Source: Oscillospiraceae bacterium (lineage in GTDB: Bacteria > Bacillota > Clostridia > Oscillospirales > Oscillospiraceae). From it: DNA of 64,000 nucleotides. Under the pieces are notes generated by a model that saw nothing but the letters and a program-made list of their open reading frames with translations, did no database searches and had not been told where the DNA came from. Location of the stretch: the NCBI GenBank assembly GCA_017548065.1, contig JAFYNQ010000027.1, forward strand, positions 9,872 through 73,871, written 5' to 3'. The translations under genes and the position numbers were made by a program. Of the stretch, positions 11,656 to 64,000 are shown piece by piece (the stretch's first letter is position 1; the number at the start of each line of letters is the position of its first letter).

Positions 11656-11663
11656 AATATATT

Positions 11664-44613: not shown

Positions 44614-44633
44614 GCATACTCCTTTTGGGCGTA

Positions 44634-45581: not shown

Positions 45582-45585
45582 AAGA

Positions 45586-46566: not shown

Positions 46567-46567
46567 A

Positions 46568-47173: not shown

Positions 47174-47191
47174 AGCCGCCCCTCCTTTCTG

Positions 47192-48142: not shown

Positions 48143-49248
48143 AATTCTTCCCTCAAGAGGTTGATTCTGCCCAGAAGAATACCCAGTATGGCGTAGGGCA
48201 GAATATTGGGGTTTGATGCCATTAGTCCCAGCTCAACAGATTGCTGCAGGACAATGACAGTGAAGGCGACCATAAGACCGGCGGTGCAGGGGTCTTTGCG
48301 ATAGGGTATGCCGTGTGCAAGACAAATGCGGAAGAGATTTGTCCAAAGGCTGTAGCCCACCAGACCGAAGGCGGTGAGGCAGGCAAGGGCGCTGTTATGC
48401 CAGTAGCCGGCATTGATGTTGCCGGTACCGAACCAGTGGTTGTTGCCCAGGAGGCGGAAACCCTCCACCCACACCTGGTCACGTCCGTTAAAGATGGGCT
48501 TGTTGAAATTCTCCATACTCCAGGCATCCAATGCGGCCAGATCCCATGCGGAGGTCAGGATCGCAACAAAGGCTGCGACGAACAGGGGGACAAGCAGCAT
48601 TACCAGCTGCATCCGTTGCGAGGCCAGCAGTCCACGGGTAGGGAGAATGCCGAAAAACAGAAGCAGCGTAACGGCAGCAGCCAGAATGCAGGAACGGGAG
48701 TTGGTCTGCCAGAACAGAATGCCGAATATAATACCGGCGCCGATGAGAATCAGCTTGCTGCGGACGTTGCGGATGCCAAAATAGGGAACAAGAAAAATCA
48801 GGAAGCTGTTAAGACCCACCATGGCAACGGAGTTGCCGTCCCAGCCCTTTAATATATCTGTGTAGGTATAGGCGGTGAGAACGACAAGACCCATGACGGC
48901 ATAGGCAAGACCGGTCAGAAGAAGAGCGCTGCGGGTGGGACGTGTTTCTGACAGAATGAACACCAGAAGATAGGTCCATAAGTAATCAAAGGCATCGGTT
49001 TGGCTGCCGTGGGACAAGGAGGAGCCGATAAAGACAACACCCATCAGCAGCACAGTGAAAAATTCCTGGCGATTTGTTCGCAGAGGTCGCTCCCGCCGTA
49101 TCTTACGCATGGCGCAAACCACAGCGACAGCAACACAAAGTAATTTTGTGATGCCCAAAACATTATAAGTTTGGCCAAGGCCGGTACCTTTTACCAGGTT
49201 CAGCACCCAAAGTACCACCATTGCCGCTGTGTACAAAACGGTTTCCAT
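48139..49248 (-). CDS. Wzy polymerase / O-antigen-ligase-like membrane protein
   Basis: Many TM segments; TNSRS, NGRDQVW..G, WHNS motifs typical of the Wzy_C/ligase superfamily. Confidence 0.7.
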   Translation of the reverse strand: METVLYTAAMVVLWVLNLVKGTGLGQTYNVLGITKLLCVAVAVVCAMRKIRRERPLRTNRQEFFTVLLMGVVFIGSSLSHGSQTDAFDYLWTYLLVFILSETRPTRSALLLTGLAYAVMGLVVLTAYTYTDILKGWDGNSVAMVGLNSFLIFLVPYFGIRNVRSKLILIGAGIIFGILFWQTNSRSCILAAAVTLLLFFGILPTRGLLASQRMQLVMLLVPLFVAAFVAILTSAWDLAALDAWSMENFNKPIFNGRDQVWVEGFRLLGNNHWFGTGNINAGYWHNSALACLTAFGLVGYSLWTNLFRICLAHGIPYRKDPCTAGLMVAFTVIVLQQSVELGLMASNPNILPYAILGILLGRINLLREEL

Positions 49249-49269
49249 ACGATCCCTTTCCTGTGTTTG

Positions 49270-50151
49270 TTATGATCTGTGTCGCCCATAGTGCAGCGCC
49301 ATGGCAATGCCCAGGGGCAGAGCGGCAGCAAGCAGCAGCCATCGCTTTCCTTTGTAGCGTCCCAGGGGACTGGGTGACAAAAGGGAAAAGGCGATGTAAC
49401 GATAGGCAGCGTCAAAGCGTATTTTCAAAGGCAGCGGCATATCCAGACGGTCTGCATAGAACCATTTCATGGACACGCTGTTGCGAAGCATAAGCTGGCG
49501 GAAGCTGTGAGAGTAGCCGCCCTCCTGGTATTCGCAGCTGCAAAGCGCCTGGGGGAGCAGCTTGCAGCGATGGGCTTCGTCGATCCGGTCATAGAGCCAG
49601 GTCTCCGGGAAGAAACGCTGCGCCGGCGGCTCCGGGATTTTATGGGGCTGCAAAAGCTCTGTGCGATATACCAGTGTGCGATCACCGCTGCAGCGGTGGA
49701 GATTGATCAGTTCTATAAGGGTGGTTTCTGAAAGTTCCTCCGGGAAGGGGTCGCCGATTTGCTTGCCGGTTTCCATGTTTTCCTTGTAGGCTATAATGCC
49801 TGCCGGCGTATCCTGGATGGCCGCCAGCAGTGCAGACAGCGCACCGGGCATCAGCACATCGTCGGAGTCAATGCACAGAAAATAGGCATGCTTTGCCTCC
49901 CGGATGCCCACATTCATGGCGGTATGCTTGCCACCGTTTTCCTTGTAGATATAACGGATCTTCAGTTGTCCCTCGCAAGTGAAGGCATCTACCACCTGCT
50001 TTGTATCGTCGGTGGAGCCGTCATCCACGATCAGCCACTCCAGCTCCGGGCAGCTTTGGCTTTTTAAACTCTCATACAGCCGACCCAGCAGCTTTGCCCG
50101 GTTATAGGTAGGTGTGAACACGGTGATTCCGGGAAGAAATGTATTATGCAA
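49270..50151 (-). CDS. Glycosyltransferase family 2
   Basis: FTPTYNR, VDDGSTD, NGGKH, IDSDD, FPE; probable TTG start 50151 after GAGGAG. Confidence 0.88.
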   Translation of the reverse strand: MHNTFLPGITVFTPTYNRAKLLGRLYESLKSQSCPELEWLIVDDGSTDDTKQVVDAFTCEGQLKIRYIYKENGGKHTAMNVGIREAKHAYFLCIDSDDVLMPGALSALLAAIQDTPAGIIAYKENMETGKQIGDPFPEELSETTLIELINLHRCSGDRTLVYRTELLQPHKIPEPPAQRFFPETWLYDRIDEAHRCKLLPQALCSCEYQEGGYSHSFRQLMLRNSVSMKWFYADRLDMPLPLKIRFDAAYRYIAFSLLSPSPLGRYKGKRWLLLAAALPLGIAMALHYGRHRS

Positions 50152-51199
50152 AATAAATCTCCTCAATTCTTTCCGCCCAGGCGGTACAGCTATACTGCGC
50201 TTTGATCTGTGCAGAGGTGTTTTCCAGTGCCTGAGAGGGGAAGCGGTTGTCGGTCAGCAGCTGTGCCATGCGATCTGCCAGCGCTTCCGGATTTTCTGTC
50301 TCAAAAAAGCATGCGGTATCAAAGTTCTTTGCCCATTGGTTGCCGGGGATGTCGCTGACAATGGCAGGCAGCTTCTTGTAAAGCGCCTCCAGCAGCGCAT
50401 AAGAAAAGCATTCTCTGCGGCTGGTGGACAGAAAAACCTTGGCGCTGTCATAGAATGCAGATACATTTTCAGAAGGCGCAAGGCGCACTGTGCAGCATGC
50501 CATGTCCGGGTAAGTGGCATCCAGGTATTCCCAGGTTTGGGGATAGCCTACAATGGCCAGCTTGAAGCTTCGTCCTGCCTTGTGAAGCATGCGGCAGGCA
50601 TCCATAAGGATATCCAGCCCTTTTGTTTTGTAAAAACCGCCAAAGACCAGGAAGTCATATTGCTTTGTCAGCGCTTCCCGGGAGACCAACCGTGAGCAAT
50701 CAATGCAGTTGTCTACGATGTGGACATTCTTTTCGGGAAAGCCCAGGGAAACGGTGTAGTCTGCGTAGTAGCGGTTGGGGGAGATCATGATGGCCTTTTT
50801 GCCGCAAACACCGTACTGAAAGCGGTTGATCAGCTGATGGGGCAAATCAATATTTTCCTCAAAGGAATCATGCAAATGCCAAAAAAGCTTTTGCTTTCTC
50901 GTTTTGGCAAAGGCGCATAAACAATCATAAAGCTCAAAATGGGAATGGATCATGTCCGCCTGTGCCATGGCAGCCTTTACCTGCCGGAAGGTGGCATAGG
51001 AGAAACGGTTCAGACCTGCAAAAAATACCTGCCGTGTCCGGGAAAGCTGCTGGCACCAGGGGGTTTCCGCAACGGTCTCCGGAAACAGATACATGGTTTC
51101 CACGCCACGTGCGGACAAACGCTGATCCAGCGCCAGGAGAGAGGCTATGAAGTTGCCGCTGTACTGTGCGGTATAGGCGCATACTTGCAGGAGCTTCAT
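50144..51199 (-). CDS. Glycosyltransferase family 4
   Basis: HSHF, KGLD, SRRECFSYALLEA (Ex7E), SDIPG. Confidence 0.85.
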   Translation of the reverse strand: MKLLQVCAYTAQYSGNFIASLLALDQRLSARGVETMYLFPETVAETPWCQQLSRTRQVFFAGLNRFSYATFRQVKAAMAQADMIHSHFELYDCLCAFAKTRKQKLFWHLHDSFEENIDLPHQLINRFQYGVCGKKAIMISPNRYYADYTVSLGFPEKNVHIVDNCIDCSRLVSREALTKQYDFLVFGGFYKTKGLDILMDACRMLHKAGRSFKLAIVGYPQTWEYLDATYPDMACCTVRLAPSENVSAFYDSAKVFLSTSRRECFSYALLEALYKKLPAIVSDIPGNQWAKNFDTACFFETENPEALADRMAQLLTDNRFPSQALENTSAQIKAQYSCTAWAERIEEIYFA

Positions 51200-51205
51200 G
51201 GTGTG

Positions 51206-51883
51206 TTATCCTTTCTTTCTGCCGAAGAGACGGCGGAAGGGGCGCAGCAGGCGGCTGCGCAGTACGAGTCCGGGCTTGACCCAGCTTTTTGCATACCAGT
51301 GGATGCTGACGGTGTTTTCTGTGATATTCAACCGCCCGGTAAGGTCGTCATAGGGGTTCATGTAATCTATGGGCAGGATCCTTGCACCGGCAACGGTCTG
51401 CTCAGTGCCGTCGGGAATCAGTCCCAGCTGCACCAGGGCAGCGGTGTTGTAATGGGGGCAGGCGGAAATGTCCGGGGGGACAATGGTATGGTATTGCTGC
51501 AGCATGGCCTCCACAGTCTCGTGGTGGGCAGCAGCGCCGAAGCCTTGTCCTGTGTTCACACAGCTGCTGTTTTCAAAGCTGTAGAAAGCGCTTTCTTCCA
51601 AAAGCTTATCCGGGGCGCAAAGCAGCTCCACATCGGTGTCCAGATAGATGCCGCCGTGCTCTGCCACCACCGCCAGCCGGACATAGTCGCTGAGAAATGC
51701 CCATTTGCCGTTTTCGTAGCAGTAGCGGACATAGGCGTTTTTCGTGAGATCAAAATTGGTCTCATCCCAGCGTTGCAGCTGATAATCCGGACAGTATTTT
51801 TTCCAGCTGGCAATGCAGCGCTGCGCCTTTTCCGGCAATGGTTTGCCGCCGAACCAGCAGTAATGTATGGTTTTTGGGATCAT
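51206..51883 (-). CDS. Glycosyltransferase family 32 (DxD sugar-binding)
   Basis: MIPKTIHYCWFGG, SDYVR, GGIYLDTDVE, IHWY..SW. Confidence 0.88.
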   Translation of the reverse strand: MIPKTIHYCWFGGKPLPEKAQRCIASWKKYCPDYQLQRWDETNFDLTKNAYVRYCYENGKWAFLSDYVRLAVVAEHGGIYLDTDVELLCAPDKLLEESAFYSFENSSCVNTGQGFGAAAHHETVEAMLQQYHTIVPPDISACPHYNTAALVQLGLIPDGTEQTVAGARILPIDYMNPYDDLTGRLNITENTVSIHWYAKSWVKPGLVLRSRLLRPFRRLFGRKKG

Positions 51884-51888
51884 AGCCA

Positions 51889-52686
51889 TCAGCTCCCGAG
51901 ACGTTTTTTGTGCAGTAAGGTGTAAAGGGGAGTGGGAAGAAGTCCCACCAGGATGGGGCGCAGTGTATATACATAGCACCAGACCGGCAACTTCAGAATC
52001 CGCACGGCTTTTGCCTTGACCCGTGCTTCGTTGATGCGGTAGCGGAATTTTCTCCGGGCGGTGGCGTTGCGGTCATCCCGCATGCGGTAAAGGGCTTCGG
52101 ACAGATTGATGCCCCGATGGCCGGCGTGATACAGCTTGATCCACAGATCATAATCCTCTACCCGGAGGAATTTCTTGTCATCGGTGTAGCCGCCAACGGA
52201 GAGCATGGCCTGCCGCCGCACCATACAGGGGGCATGGCAGAAGGGTGTGCCGTGGAGAAAGTCCCGGGGCTGAGGCTCAGAAATTGCTGTTCCCGTGGCC
52301 CAGGTGCCGTTTTCATCAAAATATTCCATGGGAGTGCTGACAATGGCGATCTCCGGCCGGCTTTCCAGCACCTGCAGCTCCTTCTCAAAGCGCTCCGGAA
52401 TGCACAGATCGTCACCGTCCATACGGGCGATGTAAGTGCCGGTGGCATGCTCCAGGCAGCGGTTCAGTGTGTAGTTGAGACCCATGTTTTGCGGATTTTG
52501 CAGCAGCTTTATTTTGTCGGGGTGCTGCTCACAAAAACGGGTCGCCACAGCATAGGTGTCATCGGTGGAGCCGTCATCGCAGAGGATCAGCTCCCAGTCT
52601 GTGACAGTCTGCGCAAGAATGCTTTCAATGGCATCGCCCAAAGTTTCTGCGCAGTTATAAATGCCCATCAATACGGAAATCTTCAT
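51889..52686 (-). CDS. Glycosyltransferase family 2
   Basis: ISVLMGIYN, CDDGSTD, ARMDGDD, EDYDLW. Confidence 0.9.
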   Translation of the reverse strand: MKISVLMGIYNCAETLGDAIESILAQTVTDWELILCDDGSTDDTYAVATRFCEQHPDKIKLLQNPQNMGLNYTLNRCLEHATGTYIARMDGDDLCIPERFEKELQVLESRPEIAIVSTPMEYFDENGTWATGTAISEPQPRDFLHGTPFCHAPCMVRRQAMLSVGGYTDDKKFLRVEDYDLWIKLYHAGHRGINLSEALYRMRDDRNATARRKFRYRINEARVKAKAVRILKLPVWCYVYTLRPILVGLLPTPLYTLLHKKRLGS

Positions 52687-53825
52687 AACGATTCTCCCAA
52701 CAGCTGCTTTCTGTCTTCCAGAATGTGGCGGCAAAGGGTTACCTGGTCAAAGTTCTCCCGGGCAAAAGCAATGCCGGCATCGCCCAGGGATTGCCGCAGT
52801 GCGGTGTCCTCCAGAAGCCGCAGCATTGCAGCCTGCAGCGCCGTGGCATCCTTTGCAGGCACCGTAAGGCCGGTAACGTCTTTTTTCATGGCATCTGTAG
52901 GACCGGGGATGTCCGTTACGATCACCGGTACACCCATGGCCTCTGCCTCAATGACGCCGGAGCCGAAGCCCTCACGGTAGCTGGGCAGCAGATACACATC
53001 CATGGCAGCCAAAAACTGCTCCACCTTGTCGGTGTAGCCGCACCAAAGGATGCGAGGCTCACTTTTTGCCCACTGATACAGCTCAGGCTGCAGAGATTCT
53101 GTCTTTTCCTCTCTGCCCACCAGCATAAGCACGGCATTTTCCGGCAGCTGCCGGAAGGCAGTAAACAGCTCGTTAATGCCCTTGTCGCCGGTGATGCGAC
53201 CCACAAAGCCGAACACCGTTGTCTCCGGGGCAATGCCATAATGCGCCCGAAGCTGCTGCCGCCAAAGTTCTTTTTGGTTGTGGTCAAATTTTGTCAGATT
53301 TACACCGCTGGCGCTGCCGTTCCATACCACACAGCCCTTCTCGGGGCGGTACAGACCCTCCTGGGCAGCAAAACGGAGGTTGCCGTAGCTGTCCGGGGAG
53401 ACCCGGGTGGCAAGGCTGCAAACCAGCTTTTCCACTGCCTTAAAGACCTTTCTTTTAAAGCCGGAGAAGCCTACGTAGGCAATGCCCCACTGGCAATACA
53501 GCCGTACCGGCACCCCGGCCAGCGCTGCCGCCAGGGAGGCATACAGCGATGCATTGGGGGTGGAGAACTGCACCAGGTCAAATTTTTCCTTGCGGAAAAT
53601 GTTATATAGCTTCCAGACAGCCCCAAGACCGCTGAGGCTGATGCCACGCTTCATGGCGACGGGGATATAACGCACACCCTCCGGCAGCTGGGAGACCAGG
53701 GTGCCATCCTCATCGCAGATCACAGTGATCTGCCAATCCGTCATCTTCACCAACTGTTGCAGCACCGGAAAAACAAAAGCCTGCAGCGTGATGGGGACGG
53801 TGGTTACAATACAAAGCGATTTCAT
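52683..53825 (-). CDS. Glycosyltransferase family 4
   Basis: FVGRITGDKG, LPSYREGFGSGVIEA, TDIPG. Confidence 0.9.
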   Translation of the reverse strand: MKSLCIVTTVPITLQAFVFPVLQQLVKMTDWQITVICDEDGTLVSQLPEGVRYIPVAMKRGISLSGLGAVWKLYNIFRKEKFDLVQFSTPNASLYASLAAALAGVPVRLYCQWGIAYVGFSGFKRKVFKAVEKLVCSLATRVSPDSYGNLRFAAQEGLYRPEKGCVVWNGSASGVNLTKFDHNQKELWRQQLRAHYGIAPETTVFGFVGRITGDKGINELFTAFRQLPENAVLMLVGREEKTESLQPELYQWAKSEPRILWCGYTDKVEQFLAAMDVYLLPSYREGFGSGVIEAEAMGVPVIVTDIPGPTDAMKKDVTGLTVPAKDATALQAAMLRLLEDTALRQSLGDAGIAFARENFDQVTLCRHILEDRKQLLGESL

Positions 53826-54430
53826 TTGATTCTCCTTGCAGGAACGCCCACGTAAGTACCGGACTCCGTGATGGTTCTTACGACAACGGCGCCTGCGCCT
53901 ATGACGGTATTTTCACATACGGATAGATTGTTGCTGATAACAGCGCCGATACCGACCCAGGTCTTTTGGCCGATGCAAACAGTGCCGGCGACCTTTGCGC
54001 CCACAGAGACATGGGCATAGTCAGCGATTCGGCAGTCATGCTCAATGATGGCGCCGGTGTTAAGGATGCAGTGTTGTCCTGCTTCAGCGCCGGAATTGAG
54101 GATGCAACCGGCCATAACGGCGCTGCCTGCGCCCACAGTGGCATCTGCGGCGATCACAGCCTGGGGGTGGATGGCAGTATACCAACGGACACCTTTCAGA
54201 GTTTCCACAATTCGCTGACGGATATCCTGATTGCCGATGGCAACGATCATGGGGGTGTCCAAATAATTTGCATAGTCACTGACAGGGCCTAACACGGGAG
54301 CGCCGACCCATTGTGTAATGTCTGTGCGGTCATCCAAAAAACCCAAAACACGGTCACCGACACACCGCACAATATCTGCCACAACTCTTCCGTAGCCGCT
54401 TGCGCCGATAATAATGACATTTTGATTCAT
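53822..54430 (-). CDS. PglD/NeuD-family sugar acetyltransferase
   Basis: IIGASG, VAIGN, IHP, IEHDC, hexapeptide repeats, GVPAR. Confidence 0.88.
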   Translation of the reverse strand: MNQNVIIIGASGYGRVVADIVRCVGDRVLGFLDDRTDITQWVGAPVLGPVSDYANYLDTPMIVAIGNQDIRQRIVETLKGVRWYTAIHPQAVIAADATVGAGSAVMAGCILNSGAEAGQHCILNTGAIIEHDCRIADYAHVSVGAKVAGTVCIGQKTWVGIGAVISNNLSVCENTVIGAGAVVVRTITESGTYVGVPARRIK

Positions 54431-54435
54431 AATGG

Positions 54436-55050
54436 TTACTCCTGCTTGTTGCTACCACGGAAGGGTTCCATGGTAGCATGTCCCTCAGCGCTGATGCCAT
54501 CCCGCTTCAGCACGTTCTTTACCGTAAGCAACAGAATTTTAATGTCCCCTAAAAGGGTGATGTTTTTGGTATATTCCACATCCATGCGGAAACGGTCTTC
54601 CCAGGCCAGCAGGTTGCGACCGTTCACCTGGGCAAGACCGGTCAGTCCCGGGCGCACATCGTGGCGGTGGCGCTGCTGCGCATTGTAAAGGGGCAAATAC
54701 TCCACCAGCAGGGGGCGAGGGCCTACCAGGGACATCTGTCCCAAAAAGATATTGATCAGCTCCGGCAGCTCATCCAGGGAGGAGGCACGGAGGAATTTTC
54801 CGTAACCGTTCAGCCGCCGGGCATCGGGCAGCAGCTTGCCGCTGCTGTCTTTTTCCATGGTCATGGTGCGGAACTTAATAAGCCGGAAGATCTTCTCATC
54901 CTTGCCGGGGCGCAGCTGTGTGAAGAAGGGATTTCCCTTCATGGCAACAGCGCCCACCAGGATCAGGATCAGCAGCACCGGGGACAGAACCAGGAGCGCC
55001 ACTGCGGAAATGCACAGATCCAGCACCCGTTTCCAAAATTTAGCATACAT
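54436..55050 (-). CDS. Initiating phosphoglycosyltransferase (PglC/EpsL-like)
   Basis: KR..D, KFRTM, SLDELP, SLVGPRP, RPGLTGLAQ. Confidence 0.92.
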   Translation of the reverse strand: MYAKFWKRVLDLCISAVALLVLSPVLLILILVGAVAMKGNPFFTQLRPGKDEKIFRLIKFRTMTMEKDSSGKLLPDARRLNGYGKFLRASSLDELPELINIFLGQMSLVGPRPLLVEYLPLYNAQQRHRHDVRPGLTGLAQVNGRNLLAWEDRFRMDVEYTKNITLLGDIKILLLTVKNVLKRDGISAEGHATMEPFRGSNKQE

Positions 55051-55051
55051 A

Positions 55052-56170
55052 TCAGAACGCCGCCTTTACAGTGTCAATTACATAGGAAAGATCTTCCTCG
55101 GTCATCTTGATATCCGAGGGCAGACACAGACCCCGTGCAAAAATATCCTCATCCACCGGCTGTTCGGCAGCAGAGACAAAGTCACAGTGGGCAAACACCG
55201 GCTGCATATGCATGGGCTTCCAGATGGGACGGCTCTCAATGTTGGCTTCGTTCAGCTTTTGCATCAGCGTCAGGGGGTCAACGCCGCAGCCGGCATCCAA
55301 AAGAATGCAGGAGAGCCAGAAATTGGGAACAGAGTCTGCAGCGTAGGGGTTCATGGTCAGGGGTAGACCACGGAAAGCTTCCTCATAGCGGCGATAGATC
55401 CGCTCCTTGGCATCCCGATGCTCCTGCAGATGGAGCAGCTGTCCTCTGCCGATGCCGGCAACGATGTTGGACATGCGGTAGTTGTAGCCCAGCTCCTTAT
55501 GCTCATACCAGGGGGTGTTTTCCCGGGACTGGGTGGCCCAGAACAGCGCCTTATTCCGCATTTCGGGAGACTTTGCCAGCAGCATGCCGCCGCCGGAGGT
55601 GGTGATGATCTTGTTGCCGTTAAAGCTCAGCGCCGCAAGCTGCCCAAAGGTACCGCACTGACGTCCTTTGTAGGTGGAAGACAGCGCCTCTGCGGCATCC
55701 TCAATAAGGATCACGTTGTGACGGCGGCAGATCTCCAAAATCTCGTCTGTTTTGGCAGGTGTGCCGTACAGATGCACCAGCACCACGGCTTTTACATTGG
55801 GATAGCGGCGGAAGGCCTCCTCCAGCGCCTGGGGATCCATGTTCCAGGTGTCACGCTCACTGTCCACAAACACCGGGACACCGCCTTCATACACCACGGG
55901 ATTGACCGTGGCGGCAAAGGTCATGTCGGAGCAAAGGACAACGTCGCCGGGACGGATGCCTGCCAGCTTCACTGCCAGATGCAGCGCTGCCGTGCCGGAG
56001 CAGAGCGCCAGCGCATGCATATCCTGCTGCAGAAAACGGACAACACCGGCTTCCAGCTCGTCGCAGTTGAAGCCCAAAGGTGCCACCCAGTTTCTGTCAA
56101 TGGCCTCCTGGATATATTGTGCCTCCTCGCCGTGGAGGGTGGGGGTAGCCAGTAAAATTCTTTTTTCCAT
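55052..56170 (-). CDS. DegT/DnrJ PLP aminotransferase (PglE/EpsN-like)
   Basis: SGTAALHLA, EDAAEALS, SFNGNKIITTSGGG, GYNYRMSN, CLPS; alternative GTG start 56179. Confidence 0.9.
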   Translation of the reverse strand: MEKRILLATPTLHGEEAQYIQEAIDRNWVAPLGFNCDELEAGVVRFLQQDMHALALCSGTAALHLAVKLAGIRPGDVVLCSDMTFAATVNPVVYEGGVPVFVDSERDTWNMDPQALEEAFRRYPNVKAVVLVHLYGTPAKTDEILEICRRHNVILIEDAAEALSSTYKGRQCGTFGQLAALSFNGNKIITTSGGGMLLAKSPEMRNKALFWATQSRENTPWYEHKELGYNYRMSNIVAGIGRGQLLHLQEHRDAKERIYRRYEEAFRGLPLTMNPYAADSVPNFWLSCILLDAGCGVDPLTLMQKLNEANIESRPIWKPMHMQPVFAHCDFVSAAEQPVDEDIFARGLCLPSDIKMTEEDLSYVIDTVKAAF

Positions 56171-56175
56171 AAAAC

Positions 56176-57330
56176 TCACGCTTCTATTATGCCGTACAGC
56201 TTCAAAAGCGCCAGCCGCTGCTTGCCAAGCTGCAGAGTCGCTGCGCTGTCACGGTTATTTTTATAAGTAAGGATGCGGCAAAGCCATGCCCATGGCAGCA
56301 GCCAGGGGTGCTTTTTCAAATAGGGGAAACGTCCCACAAGGATGTTTTTTGGGGGGAACAGCGCAGAAAGGCTGTGACCGGACTTCCGCCCGGCAGCAGC
56401 GGACAAGGTGATGTTGCTGCTGCGCTTTCGCACGTCGGAGCTGCCGCCGTAGACACCGGCTGCCATAAGGTCAGCCAGCAGAGGTTCCGGGTCGGTGTCT
56501 CTGTAAAAGGGGGCAGGCAGACACCAGTATTTTTCGCCCAAGGCAAACAGCGCGGCGGCAAACCGATCTGCCCGAAGCTGGACAAGCGTGTTTTCAATCA
56601 CGTCCCACTGAATGCTGTCACGGTAGTGAGCGGCAAACAGAACAATGTCGCAGACCTGGCGCACACCGAAGCCGCTGTGGAGAAAATGCTTGAAGGCGTG
56701 CAGCAACAGATACAGCATATGCTCTGTGGGGTGCAGGGTGGGAAGCCCGTGGCACACTGTGGCATGGGCCGCTGCATCTTCAAAAAAGCGGTTCCAGCTG
56801 CCGTAGGTCTGGGAGTCCGGGTCAAATAAATGCCGATGCAGCTCAAGACACAGCCCGGAGGCGGAACAGCGATAGGTGCGTTCAAAGCGGTCTTCCGGGT
56901 CGGCGGTTTCGTAGCCCAGGTCTTCCAGGGCATGGCAGCAGCGGAGAAAGTCGTCGCCGCCTATAAACAGATCCTCGTCGGAGGAGGGTCTGTGATCCTC
57001 CAGGGGATAAAGCTTGCGGCAGACATAGCCTTTGACGATCAGGGGTCGCAGATTTTCTTTTTCCAGCTGCCGGTACAGCGCCTCCAGCTGCTGGGTGCGT
57101 ACTGCCTGGGTCATGACCTGCTGCCGCACCATGGGAGCGGCTTTGGTAAGGGCGTCTCCCTGGGGTAGCTTGTAGGCAGCCTCATAAAACAGGGGCAGTA
57201 CATGATGGGCAGCGGCTTTTGCTGCCAGCTGCTGCAAAAATGAAGGGGTATAGGAAGGGTCATCCTGCAAAGGCTTGCCCGTCAGGGCAGCGCCCAGAAT
57301 CTGCATAAATGCCCGGCTCTCGTCTAACAT
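56176..57330 (-). CDS. Nucleotidyltransferase family protein (NTP_transf_5-like)
   Basis: IVKG...LYP...RPSSDEDL, LELH, LHAFKH, GVRQVCD; ATG 57330 after GGGAGG. Confidence 0.82.
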   Translation of the reverse strand: MLDESRAFMQILGAALTGKPLQDDPSYTPSFLQQLAAKAAAHHVLPLFYEAAYKLPQGDALTKAAPMVRQQVMTQAVRTQQLEALYRQLEKENLRPLIVKGYVCRKLYPLEDHRPSSDEDLFIGGDDFLRCCHALEDLGYETADPEDRFERTYRCSASGLCLELHRHLFDPDSQTYGSWNRFFEDAAAHATVCHGLPTLHPTEHMLYLLLHAFKHFLHSGFGVRQVCDIVLFAAHYRDSIQWDVIENTLVQLRADRFAAALFALGEKYWCLPAPFYRDTDPEPLLADLMAAGVYGGSSDVRKRSSNITLSAAAGRKSGHSLSALFPPKNILVGRFPYLKKHPWLLPWAWLCRILTYKNNRDSAATLQLGKQRLALLKLYGIIEA

Positions 57331-57367
57331 AGGCTGCCTCCCTTCGTAACCCGGATCTGAATACATT

Positions 57368-57396
57368 ATTATATCATAAAAATCGCTTTTTGGAAA
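57368..57396 (-). promoter_or_regulatory. Putative internal sigmaA promoter before the nucleotidyltransferase/glycan genes
   Basis: Minus strand TTTCCA-17 nt-TATAAT with TG extended -10 in the pqqD-NTase gap. Confidence 0.6.
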
Positions 57397-57405
57397 TGGT
57401 TTTGC

Positions 57406-57666
57406 TTACAGAATACCCAGCTTTTCCAGCGCCTCCAGGAAGGCGGAAATGTCTCTGCGTGCGGTGGCTTCGTCCACCTCGTATTCTGCCAGGACGGCAT
57501 CCACCAGCTGCTGAATATCTTCTGCCTGGGGCAGCAGATCCCAAAGAAAGCCGCCCAGCTCGTTAAGGACAAACAGTCCGTTGGCATCGTATACCGCAGA
57601 GCCGATGGGTACCAGCACCGTATCGCCGGATATGGTGCGCTTGATCAGTTCTTTTTTGAGCTGCAT
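57406..57666 (-). CDS. PqqD family RiPP recognition element (RRE)
   Basis: 86 aa; LVP, LNELGGFLWDLL, EYEVDEATARRDISAFLEAL PqqD pattern; ATG directly after rSAM stop. Confidence 0.9.
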   Translation of the reverse strand: MQLKKELIKRTISGDTVLVPIGSAVYDANGLFVLNELGGFLWDLLPQAEDIQQLVDAVLAEYEVDEATARRDISAFLEALEKLGIL

Positions 57667-58767
57667 TTACAGTTCCTCCTTGGCGAGCCGTACTGTCTCC
57701 TCCACCTGCTGACACAGATAGTGGGGGACTTGGTCAAAAGCGCCGGTTTCGGTGACACACACTGCAGCGCAAACGGGGCACACCGGCTTTTTGGGGCAGG
57801 TGGTGCAGGCGCTGGGCAGCCGAAGGGCGGCGGTGGCATTGCGAATGGTCTCCCAGGCGGCGGCAAAGCCTGCCTCCAGGGGATAGGCGATGGGACGGGG
57901 CATCATGCCGCAGGGCAGCATCTTGCCGTCCCAGGTGAGCCAGAAGCTGGTGCTGCCGGCACGGCAGCGGACACCGGGATCGGTCTCGGTGGAACACTCC
58001 GGCGCCAACTGGGCAAGGGCGGCGGTGTTTTCCATCCGTTTTTTAAACTCCTCCGGAGTAAACCGAAGACGGTCCCAGCGGAGACTTTCTTCTGCTGAAC
58101 GACAAGGGGTGAAGCGGTTGCCTGCCCCGTAGCTGTCCTCCTGCACACGTACCGGGGGATACATATAGCTGCTGGCTTTGATATTCACATCCAGCTCCAT
58201 GGCATCCCGGAAGATCTTCTCCAGATCCTGACAGTTGTAGGGGGTGATGGACAGATTCAGACTAACCTCAATACCTGCCTTTCGTAGGTTGGCGATGTTG
58301 CTGCGTACCCGGTCATACATGGGAAGACCGCACATTTTTTCGTAAGTCTCGTTGCAGCCGCCGTATAGGGAAATGTTAAAACGGGCAGGGGGATCTGCAA
58401 GGAATTTCTCTAAAATCTCCCCTTGGAGCATAGAACCGTTGGTGTTGACAGACACCATAAGTCCCAGCTTCTTCATGCCGCTGTAGATCTCAAAAAAGTC
58501 CTTCCGAACCAAAGGCTCGCCACCGGTGAGCAGCGCCACCAGCATACCGGCATCCCGGGCATCCCGGGCAAGCTGCAGCCACTGCTGGGCGGTCAGCTCT
58601 ATGCCTGCCTGCCGCTGCTGCTCCGGGGTCATGTGGATATAGCACATGGGGCAATTGAAATTGCACCGGGGCGTCAGCTCAAAAGTACCGGCAATGGGCA
58701 GACCCAATGCGCGACCCTTTTGATGCAGGTAGGTCATAATATGCGGTTCTGGGGCGGTTCTTTTCAT
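57667..58767 (-). CDS. Radical SAM/SPASM peptide maturase
   Basis: ELTPRCNFNCPMC (CxxxCxxC), LTGGEPL, NTNG; SPASM CRAG...DGKMLPC...CTTCPKKPVCPVCAAVC...C. Confidence 0.92.
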   Translation of the reverse strand: MKRTAPEPHIMTYLHQKGRALGLPIAGTFELTPRCNFNCPMCYIHMTPEQQRQAGIELTAQQWLQLARDARDAGMLVALLTGGEPLVRKDFFEIYSGMKKLGLMVSVNTNGSMLQGEILEKFLADPPARFNISLYGGCNETYEKMCGLPMYDRVRSNIANLRKAGIEVSLNLSITPYNCQDLEKIFRDAMELDVNIKASSYMYPPVRVQEDSYGAGNRFTPCRSAEESLRWDRLRFTPEEFKKRMENTAALAQLAPECSTETDPGVRCRAGSTSFWLTWDGKMLPCGMMPRPIAYPLEAGFAAAWETIRNATAALRLPSACTTCPKKPVCPVCAAVCVTETGAFDQVPHYLCQQVEETVRLAKEEL

Positions 58768-58773
58768 AGTAGC

Positions 58774-59631
58774 CTACTTTCTGATGCACTGCCAAAGGGC
58801 AGTCACAGCGGATTCGTCGGGGGTGCAGTCCAGCTGATACACCGGCACGGCGTTCAGCAGCTGCTCCAGGGTGTGGGAAACGGCCTCCAGGTCGTGCCGA
58901 TCCCAGGTGTTGACGCTGATGCCCTCCCATACACGGGCGAAGGCAGCGGCGCCGGTAAGCCGTGTGCAACGGGTTTGAGGCGCTTGGGTGAGATAGACGA
59001 TGGCAGACAAGGGCAGCGAGCAGCTTTCGCAAATACGGGAGCTGCCGGAGAAGGGGATGCCCTCTGCCAGGGCATTTCCTTCCGTCAGGCGCAGACAAGC
59101 ACGGTCACCGTTGCAGATGCGTGCACTGCGGTGTTTCTCCCAAAGGGCGGCCTGGGTGGATTTTCCCGTGCCGGAGGGAGCAGTGAATACAACGGTGCTG
59201 CCGCCGATGTCAATGAGAGAGCAGTGCAGCACAAAGCCCTCGGCCTGTGCCAGCAGATGCTCTGCGGCGCAGGCATTTAAAAGGGTCTTGGCAGTCATGC
59301 CCGTGGGAAAACGGGTCTGCAGCAGCTCCACAAAATGGTCTTTTCCCCGGTGGAAGCAGCACATGGCGGCATTTTCCCAAAGTCCTTCCTTGGCATGCAC
59401 ATACCGCTGCTGCCCCTGTTCTGCTTTGTAAACAGCGCCGTCGGGGAGCTTTGCCAGCAGCTTTCCCTCCGGGGGAGTCAGCTGCTGCGTATACTGAAAA
59501 AGAAAGCGGTGGGGGTCTTCTGCCGATGCTACCCGGAAGGGGGCAAGCACATCGTCGGGAAAGTCCTCCCCCTTCGGTGCAGTGACCGCCAGGCTGATGC
59601 CGGCAAAGCTGTAATACTTTTCCATACTCAT
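58774..59631 (-). CDS. HPr-kinase-related P-loop protein (putative peptide kinase)
   Basis: LHCS...FTAPSGTGKST (His + Walker A), NGDR, GIPFSGSS; ATGA overlap with upstream gene. Confidence 0.78.
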   Translation of the reverse strand: MSMEKYYSFAGISLAVTAPKGEDFPDDVLAPFRVASAEDPHRFLFQYTQQLTPPEGKLLAKLPDGAVYKAEQGQQRYVHAKEGLWENAAMCCFHRGKDHFVELLQTRFPTGMTAKTLLNACAAEHLLAQAEGFVLHCSLIDIGGSTVVFTAPSGTGKSTQAALWEKHRSARICNGDRACLRLTEGNALAEGIPFSGSSRICESCSLPLSAIVYLTQAPQTRCTRLTGAAAFARVWEGISVNTWDRHDLEAVSHTLEQLLNAVPVYQLDCTPDESAVTALWQCIRK

Positions 59632-60347
59632 TCCACCGTAATGAAGAGGATCTCGGTGTTGTTCTCGTGGATATGCTGACTTATCAGCTGAGAAATGGCA
59701 TTTCTCTTCATACCGCCGGTGATCCGCAGGCGGTAGGTGATGCCGCCGTAATAAATATCATTCTGCTTGTTTTTGTAGTAGACCACGATATCTCCGTCAA
59801 TATCCTTGCCGGAAATGTTGATCACATTCATGCCGCCGTCCAGCAGCTTTACAGACAAAAGGTCTTCCTGACGGCTCAGCTGCTTTGTGTAGAAAGCTGT
59901 GTTTTCCATCAGTGCATACTGGTAAGCTTCCGTGCTGTCATAGGGCAGACGGTTTGTCTCCAGCAGGATCACTGTCTCGCCGGGCAGCAACGCAGAAAGG
60001 GTAAAGCTTGCCTGCCCATCCTTTGTGGAAAGGGAGATGTTGGCATATTCCACCCCGGTGTCGCCCCGGTTGGTCACCCGGATCATCAGCACGCCGCTGA
60101 CCACCTGGTCGCTGCCGTCCTCCAGGAAAGGGCCGGTGTAGCTGCCCACCTCGGTGAGGAAAAGACCGTAGCCCAAATTCACAGACAGAGACTGGCTGTC
60201 AGTGACCCTGGCAGGGGCAGTCTGCTCGGTGGGTTCTGTGGTGTCGGGCGCCGGTGTTTTTTCGTTTTTCGGAAGCAGAAGCAGGACTATGACCAGTGCG
60301 ATCACAGCCAAAACAGCGGCTGCAATGTAGAAAATTTTCCGTTTCAT
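59628..60347 (-). CDS. Single-pass membrane-anchored protein of unknown function
   Basis: MKRK + hydrophobic helix, Pro/Thr/Glu linker, beta-rich soluble region; GAGG RBS. Confidence 0.7.
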   Translation of the reverse strand: MKRKIFYIAAAVLAVIALVIVLLLLPKNEKTPAPDTTEPTEQTAPARVTDSQSLSVNLGYGLFLTEVGSYTGPFLEDGSDQVVSGVLMIRVTNRGDTGVEYANISLSTKDGQASFTLSALLPGETVILLETNRLPYDSTEAYQYALMENTAFYTKQLSRQEDLLSVKLLDGGMNVINISGKDIDGDIVVYYKNKQNDIYYGGITYRLRITGGMKRNAISQLISQHIHENNTEILFITVE

Positions 60348-60366
60348 AGCATTACCTCAAAGCCAA

Positions 60367-60398
60367 GAAGGCCGTGCCAAGGAAATGGTACGGCCTTC
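60367..60398 (-). other. Stem-loop directly downstream of the precursor gene
   Basis: + strand GAAGGCCGTGCCA-aggaaa-TGGTACGGCCTTC, 4 nt after precursor stop; weak U-tract on minus strand. Confidence 0.7.
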
Positions 60399-60402
60399 AA
60401 GG

Positions 60403-60663
60403 TCAGGAATTGAACAAATTATTATACTCTGTGGGCACGTGGTAGCAGAAGCCGTCCCAGGTGTCCGGTGTACCGCCGAAAGTATCGGGGGTAAAGAAGC
60501 AAGCGCTGACGGAGCTGTCAAAGATGTTGACGCCGCCGGAGGAGACCACGGCGCAGGTACCCCGTGTGGGGTTGTCCACAATGGCCTCGCAGCTGCCTGC
60601 GATGTTAGTGCTCGTGGCGAAGCTCTCAAAGAGAATGCGCGGAGCGTTATAGGGTTTTTTCAT
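60403..60663 (-). CDS. Putative RiPP precursor peptide (86 aa)
   Basis: AAGGAGG RBS; leader MKKPYNAPRI (YxxPxI); Cys25/37/55/73; C-terminal Ser; upstream of kinase, rSAM and RRE. Confidence 0.8.
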   Translation of the reverse strand: MKKPYNAPRILFESFATSTNIAGSCEAIVDNPTRGTCAVVSSGGVNIFDSSVSACFFTPDTFGGTPDTWDGFCYHVPTEYNNLFNS

Positions 60664-60677: not shown

Positions 60678-63600
60678 TTAAGCTTCGTTTGTATTTACCA
60701 GTAGTGTTGCCACCTGGGAGATGATCTGACTGTTCTTGGAGCCGATGATCACGCAGCGGTAACGGTAGCCGTTACGGGCGGCGGTGACGGTGACAGTCAG
60801 TGTGTCGGTATTGTAGCCTTCCATGGTGGTGTTGTGCCAGTTTTCGCCGTCACGGGAGTACTGCCACTGATACTTGATGCCTTCTGTCACGTTGGCAGCA
60901 GCGGTAAAGTATGCATTTCCGCCAACCACAGCAGTAGCATCCTGGGGCTGCTCCTCCAGGGTTAGGATGCGCAGTGTAGCAGCCTGGGTATACTCGGTGA
61001 CACCGGCAGCATTGGTGATGCGGCAGCGGTACAGGTAACCGTTACGGGCATCTGTTGCCGCAATAAGAACCGTGGGCTTTGTGCAGCCTTCCATAGCAGT
61101 ATCGATCCATTTTCCGCTACCGGGACGGCAGTACTGCCACTGATACTTCAGGCTTTCGCCCTCTGCAGCTGCGGTAAACTGCGCCTTGTCACCTGCGGCA
61201 ACCACCTGGTCCTTGGGCTGGGTTGTAATCTTCAGCTCTGTTTCCACAGCCAGCAGCGCCCAATCGGAGGTCAGCTTTGTGCCGTCTGCCAAAGTGACGA
61301 TGCAGCGGTACTTGTAGCCGTCACGTGCGCCGCCGGCGGTAACGGTCAGGGTGTCCGTCGTGCAACCGGTCAGCTCGGTGTTGTACCACTTGGTCAGCTT
61401 GCTGTACTGCCACTGATAGGTTGCGTTGGGATCCTGGGTCTCCACATGGAAGGAAACCGCAGTACCGGGGTAAGTAGTGACAGATTGGGGATGCTTTGTG
61501 ATGCAGTAGGGTTCAGGCTGTACGGTCACCAGAGGACTACCCACGGCAGTGTTTTCCTGGGGAACGCCCTTGCTCAAAGCACGAACCGTCAGGGCAGCGG
61601 CGCTTGCGCTCATGCGGAAGAGAGCGCGGCTGCTGGATTCCTCTGTGTAGGTAATCTTAATGTTGGTGACGGAGAGAACGCCGCTGCCTTCTGTGCCGGT
61701 GTTGGTGATGACGATAATGTCATCCTTCCAGCCGGTGATGTTGTAGTACATATCGGAGGCAGTGTTGAATTCTCTTGTCTTGGTGTTGTAGTAGTCGCCG
61801 GCTTCCACGCCGGTACCCTCAATGTCCTGGGCAGCGATGTTGGCCAAAGTAGCGAAAGCCTTCTTGCCGTCAGCGCTGCTGACAGCCATGTGAACAGAGG
61901 CAACATTGCTGTTCACCGTCAGACGGAATGCAACAGATTGACCGGGCGCAAGATACACTTCGTTGTTGGGGCCGTAGCTCTGATACTCGGAAATCTCTGC
62001 ATCGCCGCCCGGCTTACCATCAATGAACACAGCGCCTTCCAGCTCTGTAGCAGCGCCGTTGAAGGAATTTGCTCCCAGAATCAGGTTACGCAGTTCGTAG
62101 TATACGGGATAAGCTTCCTTATCCACAAGGTAGGCGTTCTGTGCGCTTTCGTCGATCAGGTTGCCGGTAATGCCGTCGGCGGCATCGTCTGTGCCGTACT
62201 GTGTGCCGGCAGGATCGTAAATGCGGATGGCATCCAGATACAGGTCATAGCCGTCATCGGTCGTCTGGTCAAACACGGGGGTGTAAGTGGCGATGATGGT
62301 CACGGTGTACTTGCCGTAAGGCAGACCCTTTGTCTTCATCACCGGCACCTGATACATGGCATTTGCCTGCTCCGGTGTGGGAACCCATACGTTCTCATGA
62401 ACGATGATGGTATCATTGATTTTCAGACCCTCGCCGTTTACATCGGGAAGCGTGGTAAGGGTAGCGCTTGTGGTTTCCAGGATCTCGGACAGTACCCACT
62501 GACGCTGACCCTGTTCGTTCAGTCGCAGGGTGTAAATCACATCCCGTGCTTCATAGATGTAGCCATAGTAGGTGTTGACAACACGGGCTTCCACAGTGTT
62601 GCCCTGGGCATCCTGCACCTGCACAGCCAGAAGACCGGTGGTGTTGCTGGTCATGCTGATAACATCAAAGCCGGTACCGATAAACTGGAAGGTAGCGGTG
62701 GCGTAGGAATCTGCGCCTACGTGAACCTTCTTTGCGTTGTCCAGGGAGAAGCTTGCAAAGTAGGCATAGTTGCCGTCATAGCCATAAATGTTGTTGGCAT
62801 CAGTCAGGCTGTAAGCGCCGGGACGGTCTTCGTCCTGAACATAGCCGCTGGCGTCATAGTTTTCTGTGGTGTCCTCCCAGGCAGTGCCGCTGCCGCCCAG
62901 CTGCAGGAAGGTTTCCTCATAGTAGACGGTGGTGGCAGGAATGACGGTGAGGTGGTCATAGTAATAACCGCCGTTTACGTCGCTTTCGTAGTCAACTGCA
63001 TAGGTGAACTTGTCCACACCGTTCATAGCCATGGTGGTGGGGGTGTAGCGCAGCTTGCCCTTGGCACGATCCAGCAGAATGTTGCCGAACTGACCGGGAT
63101 AGCTGTCGCCGAAACCCTCTGCCAGTGTGCTGCTGCCGGTAACAGTGTCCAGAGCCTCGGTGTAAGGACCGACGGCTGCCAGTGTGCCGGGTTCACCGAA
63201 CATGTCATTGGCCATAACATCAATGTCCACGGGCAGACCGTAGTCAATGACCACAGAGTCCGGGTTTGCCTGCACCTTCCACACAACGGCAAACCAAACA
63301 ACCGTGTGGGTGTAGTCATTGCCGAGGGAGTTGGTGTAAAGCTCGTTGGAGAAGGCGGCGGAGTCGCTCAAGTTAAACTGAGTAACGTAGGTACTCTGCA
63401 CAGGCTGGCCGCAGGTGATGGTCCAGTTACCGGTGGCATCGGAATAAATCTTGACCTGGTAGACGGCATCCTCGTCATACAGTGTGTAATACTTGGGAAG
63501 CACGTCATCCTGGATCGCCTTGACTTCCAGGGCGGGGATCTCTTCCGATGCGTTCAGATAGACTTCGCTGTAGAGAACCGGCTGGGTAACGGCGATCTTG

Positions 63601-64000
63601 TTGGCAAAAGAGCCGGTGGCGCCGGTGGTCTGGTTAACGATGATCTGTCCCTGCTCATTTACCAGGTAGAATGCATAGGAAACGTTGGCAGACTTCCAGG
63701 CAACGGTGGGAGAGGGGGGGCTCTGGACACAGTTGTCCTTGTCCAGATAGTTGGTGTAGTAGAGGCTTGCGTACTCGTTGGTGGCATAAGAGCCTGCTTC
63801 ACGTGTGCCCTCCATAGAACCGGTCAGGTACACATAGTAGCTCATAGCCAGCTCGGTACTTTGTACCGTACCCATCTTCCAGTAGAAGGTTTCAGAGGGG
63901 AGCAGTGTGCTGTCACCGCCGGTGGGGATATCCACGCCATCCAGGGAAACGGCAGTGGGATTGGTGTTGTACAGGAAAGTCAGTGCGTTGATAACGCCGC
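60678..64000 (-). CDS. Giant surface/secreted protein with C-terminal Ig-like repeats (5' end outside window)
   Basis: Frame open to window edge (GVINALTFLYNTNP...); cadherin/Big-like ANPDSVVIDYGLPVDIDVMAND; three C-terminal Ig repeats. Confidence 0.8.
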   Translation of the reverse strand, partial: GVINALTFLYNTNPTAVSLDGVDIPTGGDSTLLPSETFYWKMGTVQSTELAMSYYVYLTGSMEGTREAGSYATNEYASLYYTNYLDKDNCVQSPPSPTVAWKSANVSYAFYLVNEQGQIIVNQTTGATGSFANKIAVTQPVLYSEVYLNASEEIPALEVKAIQDDVLPKYYTLYDEDAVYQVKIYSDATGNWTITCGQPVQSTYVTQFNLSDSAAFSNELYTNSLGNDYTHTVVWFAVVWKVQANPDSVVIDYGLPVDIDVMANDMFGEPGTLAAVGPYTEALDTVTGSSTLAEGFGDSYPGQFGNILLDRAKGKLRYTPTTMAMNGVDKFTYAVDYESDVNGGYYYDHLTVIPATTVYYEETFLQLGGSGTAWEDTTENYDASGYVQDEDRPGAYSLTDANNIYGYDGNYAYFASFSLDNAKKVHVGADSYATATFQFIGTGFDVISMTSNTTGLLAVQVQDAQGNTVEARVVNTYYGYIYEARDVIYTLRLNEQGQRQWVLSEILETTSATLTTLPDVNGEGLKINDTIIVHENVWVPTPEQANAMYQVPVMKTKGLPYGKYTVTIIATYTPVFDQTTDDGYDLYLDAIRIYDPAGTQYGTDDAADGITGNLIDESAQNAYLVDKEAYPVYYELRNLILGANSFNGAATELEGAVFIDGKPGGDAEISEYQSYGPNNEVYLAPGQSVAFRLTVNSNVASVHMAVSSADGKKAFATLANIAAQDIEGTGVEAGDYYNTKTREFNTASDMYYNITGWKDDIIVITNTGTEGSGVLSVTNIKITYTEESSSRALFRMSASAAALTVRALSKGVPQENTAVGSPLVTVQPEPYCITKHPQSVTTYPGTAVSFHVETQDPNATYQWQYSKLTKWYNTELTGCTTDTLTVTAGGARDGYKYRCIVTLADGTKLTSDWALLAVETELKITTQPKDQVVAAGDKAQFTAAAEGESLKYQWQYCRPGSGKWIDTAMEGCTKPTVLIAATDARNGYLYRCRITNAAGVTEYTQAATLRILTLEEQPQDATAVVGGNAYFTAAANVTEGIKYQWQYSRDGENWHNTTMEGYNTDTLTVTVTAARNGYRYRCVIIGSKNSQIISQVATLLVNTNEA
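60690..61505 (-). repeat. Three tandem ~90-aa Ig-like repeats
   Basis: Repeated P....V......F.......YQWQY....W..T...G.....L......R(N/D)GY.YRC; boundaries approximate. Confidence 0.8.

Follow-up and report, generated by a model that had tools for sequence, protein, structure and literature searches.

The window analysed here, a stretch of 64,000 nucleotides on contig C1 of an Oscillospiraceae genome (G000, 88.9% complete), carries on its minus strand a conserved gene unit whose core consists of the genes for a giant secreted protein and a four-Cys peptide, a hairpin, and the genes for a membrane protein with tandem immunoglobulin (Ig) folds, an HPr kinase (HPrK)-like protein, a radical S-adenosylmethionine (SAM)/SPASM enzyme and a PqqD protein. 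The locus is a real, uncharacterised radical SAM branch of the type of toolkit known from linear polyphosphorylated peptides (LPP), and its defining feature is the coupling to the giant secreted protein. In our preferred reading, to which we give a probability of about 0.55, the peptide is cross-linked, phosphorylated on Ser and docks on a conserved domain of the giant protein. A first-pass annotation of this DNA had described six co-directional genes at 56176-60663 as a system for a peptide synthesized ribosomally and modified post-translationally (RiPP), with a nucleotidyltransferase as the last gene. All six minus-strand open reading frames (ORFs) were found with the sizes given, and the genes are real. 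The boundaries were misplaced: the unit starts upstream at the giant gene, so that the main partner, whose shared domain is the tightest link of all, had been missed, as had the S26 peptidase and the ABC exporter. The features of the unit are as follows.

60678..64000, minus strand: giant secreted protein, 3' part; whole gene at C1 70549-77952, 2467 aa, with a Sec-type signal, a vWA domain and C-terminal Ig domains
61569..63281, minus strand: unnamed region of the giant ('DOM', aa 1601-2171), predicted Ig domain and two jelly-rolls resembling carbohydrate-binding modules (CBMs); common to all partner giants
62252..62579, minus strand: candidate surface for recognising the peptide, formed by two variable loops (about aa 1835-1944) in the first jelly-roll; co-variation with the core suggestive, unreplicated within single groups
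60403..60663, minus strand: peptide precursor, 86 aa, with a YxxP leader, Cys25/37/55/73, invariant Phe48 and Tyr74, and C-terminal F-x-S
60367..60398, minus strand: stem-loop between peptide and enzyme genes (folding z -4.55)
59628..60347, minus strand: membrane protein, 239 aa, N-terminal anchor and two predicted Ig-like sandwiches; possible assembly factor
58774..59631, minus strand: HPr-kinase-like protein, 285 aa, with His136, P-loop Lys157 and Asn-Gly-Asp176-Arg177
57667..58767, minus strand: radical SAM/SPASM enzyme, 366 aa, CxxxCxxC at 35/39/42, without a fused RiPP recognition element (RRE)
57406..57666, minus strand: stand-alone PqqD/RRE, 86 aa; nearest solved relatives are lasso-type B1 proteins

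Linkage of the peptide gene to one domain of giant proteins

A metagenome survey anchored on the domain gave 80 loci, 13 of which were too short to evaluate, and in all 67 evaluable loci the peptide gene came next. Among 301 genomes of the host's family the domain was present in 21, and in all 10 true family loci the peptide lay directly behind the domain gene; weak peptide matches in G205 and G116 proved spurious after the loci were fetched, and those in G018 and G203 lie inside long ORFs. The best 80 of 586 stretches retrieved with the radical SAM enzyme held the kinase in 78 cases, PqqD in 74, the membrane protein in 62, the peptide in 59, the nucleotidyltransferase in 18, the S26 peptidase in 14 and a Wzc-like protein in 7. 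In 56 of these 59 peptide-bearing loci a domain-bearing giant gene precedes the peptide start at a distance of 12-34 nt, or of 124 nt in one case. For the three exceptions, the contig begins 55 nt upstream, 875 nt without the domain precede the peptide, or the preceding gene encodes a 2201-aa protein without a match. Many of the 21 loci lacking the peptide are short contigs; several have kilobases upstream, in which none was detected. In L074, two tandem radical SAM genes accompany a three-Cys peptide behind a 2201-aa protein without domain-profile match.

The domain occurred at 19 further places, with the peptide next in 13, upstream in 3 and not nearby in 3 (all in G121, one at a contig end). 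Domain copies and peptides per genome rose together, numbering 3 and 3 in G105, 2 and 2 in both G005 and G277, and 5 and 4 in G121, where the five domain giants, four peptides and four radical SAM matches (one partial) are rearranged (L145-L149, L186-L195). In broader samples, the domain was found in 0 of 340 genomes of a phylum sample and the peptide profile in 0 of 399 other genomes of a class-wide sample (one more was unscored), although record titles from the radical SAM search do include other families. Four such loci (L066, L067, L070, L072) carry the cassette in records whose titles name distant taxa (Hallerella, Coriobacteriaceae, Bacteroidaceae), for which misbinning or transfer is conceivable. 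The locus is also carried by cultured strains, among them Pseudoflavonifractor capillosus ATCC 29799 (L095).

No match to the domain region was obtained in Pfam or NCBIfam, and a sequence search against solved structures gave no meaningful match. The domain model (predicted local distance difference test, pLDDT, 81) consists of an Ig domain and two jelly-rolls, the latter with CBM-like folds as their best structural matches (Z 10.4, root-mean-square deviation 2.4, 118 aligned); Foldseek matches had a template modelling score below 0.2 by query. The domain family comprises 2894 cluster representatives at 50% identity (E 0.001). The remaining domains of the giants vary freely (GH20, GDSL, vWA, SLH), and it is therefore the domain that travels with the peptide. 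An LPxTG sorting signal was found in 0 of 87 giant-protein tails. Many giants (L244, L253, L258, L288 and others) end in a Trp- and Lys/Arg-rich segment that is probably amphipathic.

The giant-gene stop codon lies 14 nt ahead of the peptide ATG. Folding of 66 nt around each stop was scored at z < -2 after the peptide gene in 57 of 59 loci and after PqqD in 33 of 54, compared to 8 of 56 for the giant gene, 4 of 50 for the membrane gene, 1 of 58 for the kinase and 4 of 59 for the radical SAM gene. A hairpin after the peptide and seldom after the giant gene is expected if both share a more abundant message; we infer that giant and peptide are transcribed on one message, with lower read-through into the enzyme genes and a usual end after PqqD. 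Promoter-like sites in the region numbered four, no more than chance (mean 4.4). The tight packing reported earlier holds at three junctions: the genes overlap by ATGA at 59628-59631, are 6 nt apart at 58768-58773 and abut as TAA-ATG at 57667/57666. It is not uniform, as a 55-nt gap holding the hairpin separates the peptide and membrane genes and a 39-nt gap holding a promoter-like site follows PqqD.

Conservation of the precursor and variation of core and domain

The leader-bearing precursor recognised in the first-pass annotation has 77 homologues, and across all 78 sequences there is no variation at the four Cys, Tyr74, His75 or the final Ser. Neither the peptide nor the membrane protein received a name from Pfam or NCBIfam scans. 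The leader consensus is YxKPxIxFExFxLSxNIAxGC. When all loci were pooled (196 distinct peptides), a C-terminal Ser was present in 192, the remaining 4 having Ser second to last, and in 189 a Phe preceded that Ser by two positions. The four aligned Cys were kept in 186; by count, 179 peptides have four Cys, 10 have five, 7 have three and none has two. In a residue alignment of 58 peptides, Phe48 and Tyr74 were invariant (58/58) and Ser18 was present in 50; there was no invariant Asp/Glu acceptor (best 64% at any offset) and no conserved Trp (5/58 at the nearest column). Two peptides of G121 end in F-G-S plus one aromatic residue.

Reference locus L264 was compared with nine close relatives at the DNA level. 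The enzyme genes and the stretch just before the peptide gene were each 94-99% identical, whereas the peptide core showed 47-63% nucleotide identity in eight of the nine comparisons (100% in the other) and domain segments 49-97%. Domain and core thus form two hypervariable islands separated by conserved DNA. Very different cores seem to be accepted by the radical SAM enzyme, and between loci with different cores the membrane protein is about 99% identical.

Among close pairs with a common core (12 pairs, 7 alleles), the domain interval 281-300 was intact in 11, compared to 6% of 107 pairs with differing cores; for intervals closer to the peptide gene, the intact share of the same-core close pairs was 50-58%. 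In a pooled partial test over 196 within-group close-strain pairs, core similarity tracked interval 241-260 (r 0.32, max-statistic p 0.002) and interval 281-300 (r 0.27, p 0.016), while the intervals closest to the peptide gene (401-480) showed no core tracking (r -0.12 to 0.00). Mean core identity was 0.80 where one loop was at least 90% identical and 0.32 where it was less than 50% identical. We take the co-varying intervals to be loops of the usual ligand site in the CBM6/35 topology. The co-variation of the core with these predicted ligand-binding loops is no more than suggestive. A strict lock-and-key pairing of core and domain is ruled out by identical domains with differing cores.

Proposed maturation, docking and alternatives

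Profile scans confirmed the Radical_SAM (E 3e-24), PqqD (E 1.5e-18) and NTP_transf_5 (E 3e-41) assignments of the first-pass annotation. The SPASM (16.3 bits, cut-off 21.5) and kinase models stayed below cut-off, and those two calls rest on conserved residues. The radical SAM enzyme keeps its Cys pattern, with conserved Cys at 258, 268, 286, 321, 324, 330, 333, 337 and 352; its relatives of solved structure, which include SkfB (best match, E 4e-20, catalytic core only), PqqE and anSME, are all distant. StsB, PqqE, MftC and AlbA, each below cut-off, figure among the best 25 of its 71 NCBIfam matches, and triceptide maturase models are absent from these 25. Weak matches of the kinase were to ScmC (24.5 bits, cut-off 125) and HprK_rel_A (16.6, cut-off 200); all 76 sequences examined have its His136, Lys157 and Asp176, and the first Asp of the lasso His-Lys-Asp-Asp motif is replaced by Gly. 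The membrane protein model contains two Ig-like sandwiches (pLDDT 96), with no solved-fold match at Z of at least 8 and weak Atlas matches of 0.75-0.77.

We propose the following sequence of events. PqqD would very likely bind the YxxP leader, and the radical SAM enzyme, in a step that we favour by a small margin over other chemistries, would join each Cys to another residue as a thioether. The kinase probably adds one or more phosphates to Ser86, with Ser18 as the alternative target; by analogy with LppS, the S26 peptidase would probably cut the leader shortly before Cys25, with the ABC transporter exporting the core. The nucleotidyltransferase might attach a capsule-pathway sugar to the phospho-Ser, a step to which we give somewhat less than even odds. 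Outside the cell the peptide would dock, on a balance of evidence tilting slightly that way, on the loops of the first jelly-roll, perhaps aided by the membrane tandem-Ig protein. A complex prediction for the domain (1-575 of A3) and the core (22-86 of A4) scored 0.02 against a mark of 0.32 and, as the controls did not fold, speaks neither for nor against docking. If docking holds, the RiPP would serve as a structural adaptor, neither weapon nor signal, and gut Clostridia may have in it a new means of displaying enzymes and adhesins.

FzmU ligates a triphosphate-like substrate to a peptide and shows that an enzyme of this kind accepts as donor a triphosphate mimic built by a kinase; by analogy, a polyphosphorylated Ser could be joined to a sugar. 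An extended scheme, which we hold tentatively and consider rather doubtful, is sortase-independent surface display: the hypervariable peptide head, folded by the radical SAM enzyme, would be recognised by the domain of the giant, the kinase would convert its terminal Ser to an NTP-like polyphosphate, the nucleotidyltransferase would join this to a capsule sugar, and the peptide would link protein and polysaccharide. The LPP- and paeninodin-type toolkits in capsule loci would then be variants of a single peptide-glycan conjugation pathway, differing in their heads and docking domains.

Several observations weigh against docking of a cross-linked phosphopeptide. The loop co-variation was found post hoc, and the far-minus-near difference in the three largest groups was 0.07, 0.01 and 0.01 (p 0.10, 0.52 and 0.53); over all pairs, interval 281-300 was non-significant (p 0.31). 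The whole-gene partial Mantel value was 0.127 for core and domain and 0.128 for core and PqqD, and identical domains were paired with two cores just 44-47% alike. The jelly-rolls resemble CBMs and could bind glycan instead, and many giants carry SLH, dockerin-like or amphipathic tails of their own, such that an extra anchor is perhaps needless. Two complete domain genes in G121 have no nearby peptide, and neither S26 nor PF14907 was found in the domain-bearing genomes G006 (95% complete) and G270 (87%). Every chemical step of the maturation is one that we infer. The kinase has Gly in place of the first Asp of lasso kinases (NGDR in 59 of 76), and the nine conserved Cys of the SPASM region could fill both auxiliary clusters, which suits C-C coupling enzymes too.

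The alternative that survives best, though we consider it unlikely, keeps the system and changes its chemistry: the radical SAM enzyme would form an aromatic C-C cross-link (an F-x-S cyclophane at the C terminus, or one at Phe48/Tyr74), the Cys would form disulfides after export, and the kinase would target Ser18, much as LppK acts close to the leader junction. The Phe that precedes the last Ser by two positions (189 of the 196 peptides), the invariant Phe48 and Tyr74 and the frequent Ser18 all suit such chemistry, as do the even number of Cys in most peptides, the four peptides with a residue after that Ser and the lack of an invariant acidic acceptor. Triceptides have an aromatic-x-x motif and an enzyme of the XyeB/GrrM/FxsB type, models of which were outside the best 25 of the 71 NCBIfam matches here; the FET|xxS register of LPP is absent as well. 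Independent thioethers are favoured over disulfide pairs because Cys are lost singly, with seven peptides having three and none having two.

It is improbable that the product is a free, diffusible RiPP of the hybrid class put forward in the first-pass annotation, acting as a bacteriocin or strain-specific signal, with the giant gene lending its promoter or the giant acting as receptor or sink. The core is hypervariable between close strains with enzymes 94-99% identical, as in conflict systems, and a hairpin behind the precursor is common in RiPP clusters. One locus (L207:15015-15197) has a 60-aa Cys peptide ending in three Ser together with a radical SAM enzyme, kinase, S24 peptidase, ABC transporter, PqqD and nucleotidyltransferase, and no domain-bearing giant in the fetched 20 kb. 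However, the peptide gene has no room for its own promoter and follows one domain in 67/67 and 56/59 loci, and a membrane protein about 99% identical across cores does not behave as an allele-specific immunity protein.

We judge it comparably improbable that the domain binds carbohydrate, with the peptide as primer or carrier of a capsule sugar and the giant recognising either the glycan on the peptide or the capsule itself. Both jelly-rolls match CBMs best (Z 7-10), one domain tolerates differing cores, the nucleotidyltransferase gene overlaps the first capsule gene, and LPP and paeninodin clusters lie in capsule loci. Linkage points the other way, being loose for the capsule genes (a Wzc-like protein in 7 of 80 loci) and tight for the peptide, and core similarity rises with the identity of one loop (0.80 vs 0.32).

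Known systems, neighbouring genes and related toolkits

No paper on this system was found in the literature searched, which left most subscription journals outside, nor was a characterised product for the cassette, in agreement with the first-pass annotation. The nearest described pathway is that of LPP (LppA/K/B/S/D/N; Popov et al. 2026, PMC13381572). It shares with the present system an S26 (S24/S26) signal-peptidase-like protease, a separate RRE, a kinase resembling HprK, an NTP transferase, an MsbA-like exporter, a capsule locus, a YxxP leader and the lack of a macrolactam cyclase. Beyond what LPP has, our locus includes a radical SAM/SPASM enzyme, a core with four Cys, F-x-S as an invariant C-terminal ending, a tandem-Ig protein anchored in the membrane and a giant secreted partner that is nearly obligate, and the LPP leader consensus YxxPxVLxHQxIxFETxxS is unmatched here except for YxxP. 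The LPP core is linear, with phosphorylation at core Ser3 as the primary change (PMC13381572), while the added radical SAM enzyme and four Cys predict a cross-linked core. The words 'radical', 'surface', 'S-layer' and 'Clostridia' have no occurrence in the main text, and Radical_SAM appears once in the supplements, as a column of a domain matrix (PMC13381572).

The system, judged from its genes, thus appears to work like the LPP pathway, and is not a member of it as defined. The first-pass annotation had proposed that a radical SAM enzyme replaces the lasso cyclase; 'radical SAM added to an LPP-type toolkit' describes the locus better, since a cyclase-free LPP toolkit is already on record (PMC13381572). 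Popov et al. regard the biological roles of LPP and paeninodin as unknown and saw no activity of LppN. For this toolkit, the branch described here supplies a concrete partner, in the form of a domain coupled almost one to one with the peptide gene. The LPP toolkit genes lie on one contig in G000 and are often split in relatives.

With paeninodin and pseudomycoidin (PMC6993621, PMC9266682) the system shares a stand-alone RRE, an HprK-like kinase, a conserved C-terminal Ser and a PsmN-like nucleotidyltransferase with DxD. It differs in that no cyclase or B2 peptidase was found, the core has about 60 residues with four Cys, and the kinase has NGDR instead of Asp-Asp. PadeK-type kinases phosphorylate the C-terminal Ser (PMC9266682), and the paeninodin-type tailoring suggested earlier is consistent with the invariant terminal Ser; PsmN transfers a hexose onto the Ser phosphate and requires the DxD pair. 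Further papers used for comparison were PMC7533575, PMC13622209 and PMC13692751. As the first-pass annotation had stated, no lasso cyclase was found, here in the host genome and 189 related loci. A full-length PF00733 match on contig C63 turned out to be an unlinked true AsnB (TIGR01536 493 bits, cut-off 267; lasso model 209.5, cut-off 525), and a second match in the genome covers 44 profile positions; AsnB-like ORFs were found in 0 of the 189 loci, and the PF13471 B2 peptidase was not found in the 88.9% complete host genome.

An analogy is offered by QhpC and QhpD of quinohemoprotein amine dehydrogenase, for which PMC7876137 describes QhpC as a small subunit of a secreted enzyme that is cross-linked by a radical SAM enzyme, freed of its leader and exported by an ABC transporter. 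Common to both is a Cys-rich ribosomal peptide of about 9 kDa; its cross-linking, leader cleavage, export and assembly with larger secreted proteins are predictions for the present system, and the observations bearing on assembly are genomic pairing and loop co-variation. Here, in contrast to what is described there, the peptide has no conserved cysteine tryptophylquinone (CTQ) Trp and no invariant acidic acceptors, the RRE is separate, a kinase and nucleotidyltransferase are present and the partners carry varied catalytic domains.

Sactipeptide and ranthipeptide systems (AlbA, StsB, SkfB) also pair a radical SAM/SPASM enzyme and RRE with a Cys-rich core, but all their family models scored far below cut-off here; to our knowledge, those classes include no kinase, nucleotidyltransferase or partner protein. 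They are defined by Cys-to-carbon thioethers, for which the single Cys losses noted above are indirect support here. The SynChlorMet, GeoRSP and HPr-rel-A systems (TIGR04248-51, TIGR04302-03, TIGR04352-53) are uncharacterised cassettes that likewise combine a radical SAM/SPASM enzyme with PqqD, and SynChlorMet and HPr-rel-A have an HPr-kinase relative. Every model fell below cut-off and precursor and partner differ; for SynChlorMet the scores were 24.5 bits (cut-off 125) for ScmC, 21.3 (100) for ScmD, 67 (400) for ScmE and 59.2 (400) for ScmF, with one radical SAM enzyme here against two.

Downstream of PqqD the window contains the following features.

57368..57396, minus strand: promoter-like site before the nucleotidyltransferase gene (matches 10/12, extended -10)
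56176..57330, minus strand: PF14907 nucleotidyltransferase, a variable neighbour with DxD at 130/132 (numbering that starts at the 57366 ATG); its stop overlaps the first capsule gene
41937..56179, minus strand: capsule/exopolysaccharide (EPS) genes, with an aminotransferase, priming transferase, acetyltransferase, glycosyltransferases, Wzy-like protein, flippase and TagF-like protein

For the nucleotidyltransferase a start at 57330 is likelier than one at 57366. Its assignment to the operon could not be upheld: of 62 evaluable loci, 5 have the gene immediately behind PqqD and 46 lack it in the fetched DNA, and it is a loose neighbour outside the conserved operon. The same-strand order on C1 is MsbA-like ABC transporter, S24/S26 peptidase, CpsB, Ig protein, two Wzc-like proteins, the 2467-aa giant, the six genes and the capsule genes. 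The S26 peptidase and ABC exporter lie beyond the window on the same contig; the peptidase (C1 83006-83461) matches PF00717 above cut-off and TIGR02228 with 29 bits (cut-off 52), and its Ser35, His74 and Asp89 are invariant. The S26 peptidase was found in 18 of 21 domain-bearing family genomes compared to 34 of 280 others, and PF14907 in 17 of 21 compared to 39 of 280, where kin are not independent. A contig from sequencing runs covers 56671-64000 with one difference, and may be the source of the same DNA.

In genomes that lack the domain, a set of kinase, PqqD, S26, ABC and nucleotidyltransferase genes follows other giants, and two such loci hold YxxP peptides that are free of Cys. The host itself has an LPP-like set free of radical SAM at C38 2144-7695, with an 819-aa secreted protein, a Cys-free YxxP peptide ending in Tyr, a kinase and Wzc-like genes; further parts of it lie on other contigs, PqqD/S24/ABC on one and a nucleotidyltransferase with EPS genes on another (C39 1673-4540; C52 17830-18987). 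Giants beside such toolkits share other C-terminal regions, with 29% identity over 200 aa (E 8e-10) between L200:14845-19998 and the C38 giant and 32% over 331 aa (E 4e-28) between those of L208:1041-7172 and L216:1979-5614. These regions are candidate docking domains for other peptide classes, and such sequence similarities hint at a general rule in which each peptide class is matched to a docking domain. Elsewhere, two adjoining large secreted-looking ORFs of 1545 and 1576 aa lie on the plus strand of the window at 7018-16425, and beyond the window two tandem Wzc-like fusion proteins are encoded at C1 78409-81387, one of them with a long terminal Tyr-Gly repeat.

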